Source: a virus. Taken from it: a stretch of DNA of 64,000 nt. Every line of letters begins with the position of its first letter. Within the stretch, counting starts at the first letter, position 1. Location: positions 49,128-113,127 of IMG/VR virus record IMGVR_UViG_3300045988_124399. One strand, 5' to 3'. Shown here in pieces: positions 50,281 through 51,173 of this stretch. A model generated the notes under the pieces. The model worked only from the letters and a program-made list of their open reading frames with translations, made no database searches and was not told where the DNA came from. A program made the translations under genes and the position numbers.

Positions 50281-50794
50281 TCAATCCTCCAACTGACAGA
50301 TATAAACATCTTCGTGATGGAGAATTTTTCTAATCATTAATTGAATAATATCCCAATCTCCTCCACCAAGGCCACACCCAATTTTATAAGGAAAAGCAAT
50401 CGGAATATAGCTCGGAACTAATTTATTTAAATTTTCTAAACAACTAGCAAATGCTTCATAATTAGTATATCTACATGGGCCATATCCATAATCATATTGA
50501 GCGAATAAACTTGCTACTCTATGACCATCTACTGTAGTAGTGCAAGCAACCGCACCAAGCAAAATGTCATTAGGCGGATTTTCTAATCCTGCGACTTGCG
50601 CTTCCGCGTTTTCAATAGTTTTTTTTATAATCTACATAGACTTCAGGCCAACGAATACGGATTTGTTTGGCAAGACCTGCACCCATAACACCTTGACAAT
50701 TCACTTGATGACAAATTACAATTTTAGGAGGTAAGTCTAATAGACTTTTATTTTTATAATAAGTAATTTGTTTAACCACTAATCCTATCTCCAT
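50281..50794 (-). pseudogene. TARG1/OARD1-like macrodomain gene split by a +1 frameshift inside a T8/A8 homopolymer (50619..50626)
   Basis: NCQGVMGAGLAKQI motif in ORF 50612..50881; SYIPIAFPYKIGCGLGGG in ORF 50281..50562. Removing one A from the A8 run gives a single continuous macrodomain. Confidence 0.55.
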
Positions 50795-51173
50795 TATGAT
50801 AAAAATTACAAAATCTTGAATCGCCACCACAAGAACAAATTTCACGTTCCTTAGTGCCCCAACACTCTGCAGTTTTGTCATCTCTTAAATGATAACACTC
50901 ACATTTCTTAACTACTTCAGTAATTGGAACATCTTCGCTCTTGGATTCTTCTTTCTTTTCATAATGGCCCGGAACCCAAATAAGATTTTCACCATTAACT
51001 TCTTCCCAAACGTCAGCCATCTGTTGGACACATTCAAGACAATATTGCCAATAAGAATAACATTGATCTCGTGTTAGGTCTTCACTTACTTTGTCCCAAA
51101 GAGCGATAGGAATTCGTTCTCTAATTTCATATGTATCAGTTTTAGCTTGACTTACAGCTTCATTATCAATCAT
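50772..51173 (-). CDS. Cys-rich hypothetical protein
   Basis: ORF, TAA stop. Confidence 0.45.
   Translation of the reverse strand: MIDNEAVSQAKTDTYEIRERIPIALWDKVSEDLTRDQCYSYWQYCLECVQQMADVWEEVNGENLIWVPGHYEKKEESKSEDVPITEVVKKCECYHLRDDKTAECWGTKEREICSCGGDSRFCNFYHNGDRISG

Follow-up and report, generated by a model that had tools for sequence, protein, structure and literature searches.

The question raised by the locus examined here is whether a phage macrodomain gene that is split between two reading frames at a run of eight adenines is a dead gene, a misread one, or one whose product is recovered by slippage at the run. The locus lies in a 64,000-nucleotide (nt) stretch of viral DNA (positions 49,128 to 113,127 of IMG/VR record IMGVR_UViG_3300045988_124399; hereafter the window, with coordinates counted from its first nucleotide), in which the macrodomain gene, referred to below as macro, is on the minus strand and the run (A8, or T8 on the plus strand) covers 50619..50626. 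An initial annotation of this DNA had offered three explanations: a sequencing indel in the homopolymer, a recent pseudogene, or a slippage site producing the full-length enzyme at low frequency. We favour the second of these, and consider that the A8 allele is probably a genuine and very young loss-of-function allele, with the gene having apparently been inactivated at least six times independently in this phage group.

The macro gene is split at the A8 run

At the lesion the minus strand reads ...GTA GAT TAT AAA AAA AAC TAT TGA. Frame 0 from the ATG at 50794 reads MEIGLVVKQITYYKNKSLLDLPPKIVICHQVNCQGVMGAGLAKQIRIRWPEVYVDYKKNY and ends at a premature TGA (50612–50614, minus strand) two codons past the A8 run, and the +1 frame picks up as TIENAEAQVAGLENPP...GCGLGGGDWDIIQLMIRKILHHEDVYICQLED and continues to the normal stop at 50281–50283. 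The 5' part in frame 0 (50615..50794, minus strand) contains ICHQVNCQGVMGAGLAKQ, the first ADP-ribose-binding loop, and terminates in ...VDYKKNY; the 3' part in the +1 frame (50281..50618, minus strand) reads TIENAEAQ...FAQYDYGY...GCGLGGGDW...QLED*. Both open reading frames (ORFs) listed in the initial annotation, 50612..50881 (89 amino acids (aa), ending ...VDYKKNY*) and 50281..50562 (93 aa), are as described. A tblastn search with the repaired protein placed residues 1–59 at 50794..50618 and residues 57–170 at 50625..50284, in different frames, with the two pieces joining within the A8 run, and the reported position of the frameshift was exact. The proposal that removing one A would restore a single domain also held, as this gives an uninterrupted protein of 170 aa which is 92–96% identical to intact homologues of 165–170 aa.

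The frame and stop of ORF 50612..50881 stand as reported, but its upstream portion is an overlap with the preceding gene (50772..51173) and not part of macro, which starts instead at ATG 50794 or GTG 50779. The GTG appears the likelier start: it follows a GGAG and all relatives conserve it, while many of them have ACG, CCG or ATA in place of the ATG. The product of the A8 allele has 60 residues from the ATG or 55 from the GTG, and the 3' two-thirds of the macro fold are out of frame downstream of the run. For the 3' part we saw no separate start with a Shine-Dalgarno-like sequence, and a split enzyme made by termination and reinitiation at the ATT overlapping the TGA was rejected because the sequence holds no start signal there. 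No second copy of macro was found within the window.

Intact and broken macro alleles in related phages

At this site, relatives of 86–96% nucleotide identity have A7 in frame or lack a run altogether (AAGAAGACC), and the same was seen in 14 contigs retrieved via intact proteins, with in-frame A7, or AAGAAGACC or AAGAAAACC in the P0003 clade. As the choice of these 14 contigs was biased toward intact sites, we also made an unbiased check by scanning three collections for the flanks of the run with A6–A9 permitted, and all seven of the matches (7/7) were A7 and in frame. Set against the nearest intact alleles, the window allele has nonsynonymous-to-synonymous ratios (pN/pS) of 0.07–0.14 and no unique codon besides the A8 lesion. 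Comparison with related genomes had been suggested as a check in the initial annotation, and besides A7 or the lack of a run it revealed other disabling lesions in the same gene.

Lesions were surveyed in 24 distinct contigs of the phage group, and a tblastn scan of viral contigs that was blind to gene integrity gave 12 close genomes, of which four had a broken macro. Nonsense changes were found at Gln34 (to TAA, in IMGVR_3300029860_000005), at Trp49 (TGG>TGA at 50648..50650 in window coordinates, in IMGVR_3300045988_131075, also L017/L029) and at Trp147 (to TGA, in IMGVR_3300045988_117464 and ULOH01011041), and a 1-nt deletion lies beside the A run in IMGVR_3300045988_126226. A further contig, L023 (ENA ERZ25300796 k99_55502), was found via the 93-aa fragment; it is 99.4% identical to the window and has A7, together with a G3>G4 insertion in macro at about 50685 and a CAA>TAA change at Gln66. 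With the window and L023 included, macro has seven lesions in six independent alleles, and each of these broken alleles sits on a separate tip of the gene tree.

The same test applied to nine neighbouring genes, with TAG counted as a sense codon (see below), found one lesion, a TGA at Trp16 of a 65-aa ORF. Expressed as lesions over synonymous changes, this is 7/94 for macro compared with 1/869 for the nine neighbours (Fisher P = 8e-7). The ratio of nonsynonymous to synonymous substitution (dN/dS) is about 0.12 for intact macro alleles and 0.03–0.12 for the neighbours, which indicates that intact alleles are under purifying selection. In a sister clade (L117–L119 and L121–L124, viral contigs of 44–201 kb) which shares the downstream HslV-like gene at 66–67% identity, no macro gene was found within 2.5 kb of that gene, and macro is therefore best described from these comparisons as a clade-specific accessory insertion or loss. 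Taken together, the lesions at the tips, the dN/dS of 0.12 and the sister clade without macro at this locus point to an accessory gene which is constrained while it is kept and is repeatedly and recently lost.

We rejected two possible sources of further broken alleles. Gene calls of 134 aa are not N-terminal truncations but reflect the start choices of gene callers, as the DNA frame is open upstream with a GTG start, and the 132/133-aa members of the protein cluster are not macro fragments but the upstream gene. A coupling between the loss of macro and that of the nearby NADAR-domain gene was also rejected, since only L023 lacks both, NADAR being retained in the five remaining genomes with a loss-of-function allele. 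In L023 the Gp5.9-like, NADAR and HNH genes have gone too, through a deletion equivalent to window 48007..49694, and this strain has dropped a whole set of accessory genes, presumably for counter-defence, together. The five nonsense lesions observed across the phage group are all C:G>T:A transitions. The L017/L029 genome has two TGG>TGA changes 2.5 kb apart, one at macro Trp49 and the other at Trp16 of the 65-aa hydrophobic ORF mentioned above (48009..48206); a scan of 13.9 kb of this genome turned up no tRNA, and suppression of TGA is possible there.

Sequencing error, recoding or an on/off switch

A single-base change inside a homopolymer invites the suspicion that the true DNA is A7 and the extra A a miscall of sequencing or assembly, and this is strengthened by the extra A being the only change unique to the window allele and by the absence of A8 from all seven of the unbiased pattern matches. 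However, an exact-match query with the 3' fragment of 93 aa led to a separately deposited contig (L022; ENA ERZ27260764, k119_16715, 17 kb; the k119_ name suggests a MEGAHIT, i.e. short-read, assembly) which matches the window without a single difference across 6282 bp, A8 included, and the same fragment is recorded for a JGI/IMG contig of 113 kb. The window has further A8 runs inside the ORFs of its DNA polymerase (16946..16953) and DnaB helicase (26356..26363) and both are in frame, and over some 18 kb compared with relatives of 95–96% identity the other unpaired indels either fell outside the ORFs examined or were a multiple of three, except for one in the tail of a ParE-toxin-like gene (53138..53431, minus strand). 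The knock-outs in relatives that are of the substitution type also show that loss of macro is biologically common. Several points nevertheless weigh against the reading of A8 as a genuine pseudogene lesion and of its consequences. The ParE-like gene ends in ...YKKLVVFNFIDFI (97 aa) in the window and L022, and in ...YKKTGCF in five relatives (91 aa, except in L001, where an internal deletion of five residues leaves 86 aa), owing to a homopolymer length difference near 53170 in which the window and L022 have A6 and the relatives A7, in the same TAT AAA AAA ACT context as in macro; this second A-run difference may be a true polymorphism or may point to a problem with homopolymers. L022 may share raw reads with the window, as a separate origin for the two is not demonstrable. 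Some degree of rescue by slippage at A8 is possible, and the anti-DarT2 role proposed below for the intact protein is drawn from its family and neighbouring genes. The sequencing indel of the initial annotation is thus weakened by the identical second assembly, and because of the ParE-like exception and the unproven separate reads of L022 we keep a small share of probability for it.

The two explanations that give the run itself a function are less probable again. Programmed or exploited recoding would have RNA polymerase slippage, or a +1 ribosomal frameshift, on A8 supply the enzyme at a low set level, and A/T runs are indeed slippery both for RNA polymerase and for tRNA-Lys. But with A7 in frame or no run in the homologues no shift is needed there, so that as a recoding site the run is not conserved, nor is it required; AAA AAA ACT is in any case the expected codon choice for K-K-T at 32% G+C. 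A8 is also shorter than the 9 nt at which selection against slippery runs usually begins (PMC1088944), and slippage on A/T runs is overwhelmingly a +1 insertion (PMC5574713), which yields the wrong frame since rescue of the A8 allele needs a -1 or +2 slip in the mRNA. The RNA around A8 is no more stable than shuffled sequences (z = +1.2) and so offers no stimulatory structure, and by eye we saw at the shift site no Shine-Dalgarno-like element and no stop, rare or slow codon in the A site. The 0-frame codon following AAA AAA is AAC and the stop lies two codons beyond, which departs from the prfB-type pattern, and the in-frame A8 runs noted above show that essential genes of the same window tolerate them. 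We consequently regard recoding as very improbable, and the suggestion of a slippage site yielding the full-length enzyme is not supported by these comparisons. A DNA-level switch, in which A7/A8 is a hypermutable contingency tract toggling a costly counter-defence gene and the window has been caught in the OFF state, has somewhat more in its favour: the run is within coding sequence, the lesions of the window and IMGVR_3300045988_126226, two out of seven, fall in or beside it, the 99.4%-identical L023 has A7, and losses have been repeated despite long-term constraint. Yet one clade writes K-K-T as AAGAAGACC and so does not conserve the run, the codons are those expected from base composition, nonsense substitutions, which the tract could not reverse, account for four lesions out of seven, and the seven unbiased matches show no spread in length. 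Contingency tracts are usually longer, with seven to eight bases being short for one. On balance such a switch is improbable.

The reading that we favour, of a recent pseudogene, draws on intact orthologues at 92–96% identity with a dN/dS of 0.12, on the repetition of the lesion in a second assembly, and on relatives that have A7 or no run, some of them with independent lesions in macro. The ancestral gene encoded a single-domain macrodomain of 165–170 aa with TAT AAA AAA ACT (Y-K-K-T) at this site, and A8 probably arose from A7 by replication slippage. Neither fragment is expected to fold or bind ADP-ribose by itself, and rare -1 or +2 slips of RNA polymerase, or +1 slips of the ribosome, would yield at most a small and unselected fraction of full-length protein. 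Purifying selection keeps the gene in the long term with repeated losses at the tips, and a usefulness limited to certain conditions may be why these recur. This pattern fits a counter-defence gene that is needed only with hosts carrying the matching ADP-ribosylating defence, and the losses may have been neutral, in hosts without DarT2, or favoured by selection. A more speculative proposal, which we think unlikely, is that macro has been repeatedly selected for inactivation, with the A7/A8 tract as one quick and reversible off-switch among the routes taken. A possible reason would be that some hosts sense the macrodomain or its activity, by analogy with defences that sense Ocr or Gp5.9, and it is also possible that macro interferes with an ADP-ribosylation step used by the phage itself.

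Family and predicted function of the Macro protein

The repaired protein scores 19.6 bits against the Pfam macrodomain model PF01661, slightly short of the curated threshold (gathering score 22; E = 9e-4, residues 29–148), and its homologues at 40–50% identity include hundreds annotated as macro domain, many with a precomputed PF01661 match. It also matches PHROG 335 (macro/'phosphatase') at 5e-38. A profile built from 32 homologues and searched against PDB sequences gave BT1257 (1e-17), DarG from M. tuberculosis (1e-15), SCO6735 (1e-13) and DarG from T. aquaticus (7e-13), followed by Poa1p and TARG1 (about 1e-9), with alphavirus nsP3 macrodomains as weak matches (E about 0.01 or worse). An AlphaFold2 model of the repaired protein (mean predicted local distance difference test (pLDDT) 90.7, predicted template modelling score (pTM) 0.87) gave Foldseek top matches that were all macrodomains (probability 1.00, template modelling (TM) scores 0.65–0.83), ranked as in the profile search. 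The repaired protein is thus predicted by the model to have the three-layer alpha/beta/alpha macro fold, and both searches place it in the ALC1-like class of macrodomains (TARG1, DarG, Poa1p and SCO6735).

Asn32, Gln99 and the GCGLGGG loop are invariant in the family, Gln99 in all 32 homologues. Gln99 (within FAQ) aligns with DarG Lys80 (FPTKKHW), with SCO6735 Gln85, and with the Q of NMIGQHG in 5E3B/2AFC, and the Lys84–Asp125 dyad of TARG1 is replaced by Gln99 and a Gly. The TARG1 Asp125 motif, which we take to be GCGLDRLQW, was placed by eye opposite the Gly of GCGLGGGDW. The description of the domain as TARG1-like in the initial annotation therefore holds for the class, on the profile and Foldseek rankings, but not for the catalytic dyad, and the alignment suggests that the subtype is that of SCO6735 and BT1257 with Gln in place of the catalytic Lys of TARG1 and DarG. 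SCO6735 likewise lacks the TARG1 Lys84/Asp125 pair, requires Gln85 and efficiently reverses the thymidine ADP-ribosylation made by DarT, and its mobile loop has the DNA-clamping lysines Lys89 and Lys93 (PMC9411070). The loop following Gln99 in the phage protein (YDYGYGPCRYT) is similar in length to that of SCO6735, has no lysines in the phage clade, and is where the pLDDT dips to 80.

Macro is a single-domain protein of 165–170 aa with no C-terminal DarT-binding domain, and no darT gene was found among the neighbouring genes (RNA-ligase-like, HslV-like, Gp5.9-like, NADAR and HNH). From its family and neighbours we infer that the intact gene encodes an anti-DarT2 factor of the orphan-antitoxin type, similar to AdfM, since phage NADAR proteins (AdfN) counter DarTG1 and phage DarG2-like macrodomains (AdfM) counter DarTG2. 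The protein would be an orphan ADP-ribosyl hydrolase of the DarG2/SCO6735 type that strips ADP-ribose from thymidines in phage DNA, encoded within an accessory, presumably counter-defence, block along with the NADAR (AdfN-like), Gp5.9-like and RNA-ligase-like genes, and a phage with A8 would have lost this means of removing ADP-ribose from its DNA.

Comparison with known systems

One of the closest known counterparts is AdfM (PhiKZ gp104, from chimalliviruses), a DarG2-like macrodomain which removes the ADP-ribose added to DNA by DarT2 and so counters DarTG2 (PMC13309987). Like Macro it is a stand-alone phage macrodomain of the DarG/TARG1 (ALC1-like) class with an active-site Asn (Asn32 here), no DarT partner and a predicted orphan antitoxin role, a likeness which is one of class and not of sequence comparison. 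The two differ in that the present family has Gln where DarG2 has its catalytic Lys, and in their phages, AdfM being from nucleus-forming phages and Macro, whose activity is predicted, from a TAG-recoded gut phage with a frameshifted copy. The best profile and fold matches are SCO6735 (Streptomyces coelicolor, 5E3B) and BT1257 (Bacteroides thetaiotaomicron, 2AFC/2FG1), which share the Gln at the TARG1 Lys84/DarG Lys80 position and the GCGL(A/G)GG second loop (PMC9411070), but these are cellular and not phage proteins and have only about 20–22% identity with it. Human TARG1 (OARD1/C6orf130) and the DarG macrodomains share the fold class and the ADP-ribose-binding loops, and differ in the catalytic residues described above; DarG in addition has the DarT-binding C-terminal domain and an adjacent DarT, neither of which is seen here.

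Natural knock-outs of phage anti-DarT genes by 1-nt insertions are already known, as in RB69, where adfN (gene 30.3), a NADAR anti-DarT1 gene, is inactivated by a single inserted T (PMC11825919), and active and inactive natural alleles of AdfA and AdfB are in circulation (PMC11481870). RB69 adfN and macro are both anti-ADP-ribosylation genes of the (predicted, for macro) orphan-antitoxin type lost by a 1-nt insertion in a natural isolate with intact relatives, although they belong to different families (NADAR and macro), phages and hosts, and here the loss occurred six times independently in a single phage group, for which neighbouring genes supply a statistical control. There are also documented cases in which transcriptional slippage on a poly(A) tract rescues a frameshifted gene (Baranov et al. 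2005, PMC1088944), and Citrobacter tssM is reported to be one (PMC4256274). In those cases, as here, the frameshift is within a coding A run, but the present run is of eight and not at least nine, requires a -1 or +2 slip (PMC5574713), and is at an unconserved site.

By itself, then, the A8 frameshift would be an ordinary young pseudogene, and an annotation of programmed recoding is unwarranted. What it adds is a case from the macrodomain family, in an uncultured TAG-recoded gut phage, that comes with a signal of recurrence at the population level and extends the single laboratory-phage examples of RB69 adfN, AdfA and AdfB. The combination of at least six knock-outs, intact neighbours and constrained intact copies looks like the signature, in a natural population, of fluctuating selection on an anti-ADP-ribosylation gene, and the matched ON and OFF macro alleles provide a testable set for establishing when DarT-type defences matter in the gut.

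TAG recoding and the nonsense alleles

TAG is read as sense in the window, at 10206..12509, 21651..23282 and 18073..19282 (all minus strand) and at 119..1198 (plus strand). The first of these encodes NrdD, whose 767 aa run across two in-frame TAGs and give a single unbroken Pfam NRDD match along the full profile, with the glycyl-radical motif past both TAGs; another frame of the window stays open for 544 codons apart from five in-frame TAGs. Pairs of long segments in the same frame are split by TAG in 15 instances, by TAA in five and by TGA in none. This usage fits the code-15 (TAG to Gln) gut phages described elsewhere (bioRxiv 10.1101/2021.08.26.457843; PMC9523058), and because of it standard-code gene calls in the window are fragmented.

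Stop recoding was rejected as an explanation of the macro nonsense alleles, since these lesions are TAA or TGA and the window has no pair of long ORFs separated by TGA, and it is irrelevant to the A8 allele because recoding cannot repair a frameshift. The upstream gene (50772..51173, minus strand; 133 aa, Cys-rich, with no family and a 23-nt overlap with the macro start) has CAG>TAG at Gln51 (51021..51023) in the clade of L008 and L011–L014, and in public calls the gene is sometimes read through and sometimes split into 50 + 82 aa. We dropped this change as a lesion, TAG being a sense codon here; it suggests that TAG recoding is spreading into the early/accessory block. A cluster of four tRNA genes (Cys-GCA, Lys-TTT, Gly-TCC and Leu-TAA) lies at 61649..63692 on the minus strand. 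There is no suppressor tRNA among these four, and the related loci were scanned without finding any tRNA.

Genomic context of macro

The window is the part of a large phage genome concerned with replication and nucleotide metabolism, with genes for DNA polymerase, topoisomerase II subunits, NrdD, PhoH, ligase and DnaB. Its relatives are contigs of 159–197 kb from human-gut metagenomes, and among cultured or GenBank phages we found no close relative at the DNA level, with macro proteins there just 32–41% identical. Macro is part of an accessory block on one strand which consists of the ParE-like gene, the RNA-ligase-like gene (51348..52727, minus strand, 459 aa, intact in all relatives), two small ORFs, macro itself, a gene of the HslV/proteasome-like peptidase family immediately downstream (49773..50279, minus strand, 168 aa, also intact in all relatives), a T7 Gp5.9-like gene of the RecBCD inhibitor family (49473..49700, minus strand, 75 aa), and the NADAR-domain gene (49029..49472, minus strand, 147 aa), to whose family the phage anti-DarT1 factor AdfN also belongs (PMC11825919). 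Between NADAR and the next gene is an HNH endonuclease ORF on the plus strand (48306..48761; PHROG 374, 1e-27), and aligned relatives skip the segment of about 48226..49042 that holds it, with the exception of the identical contig L022. This ORF is likely to be a mobile homing endonuclease.

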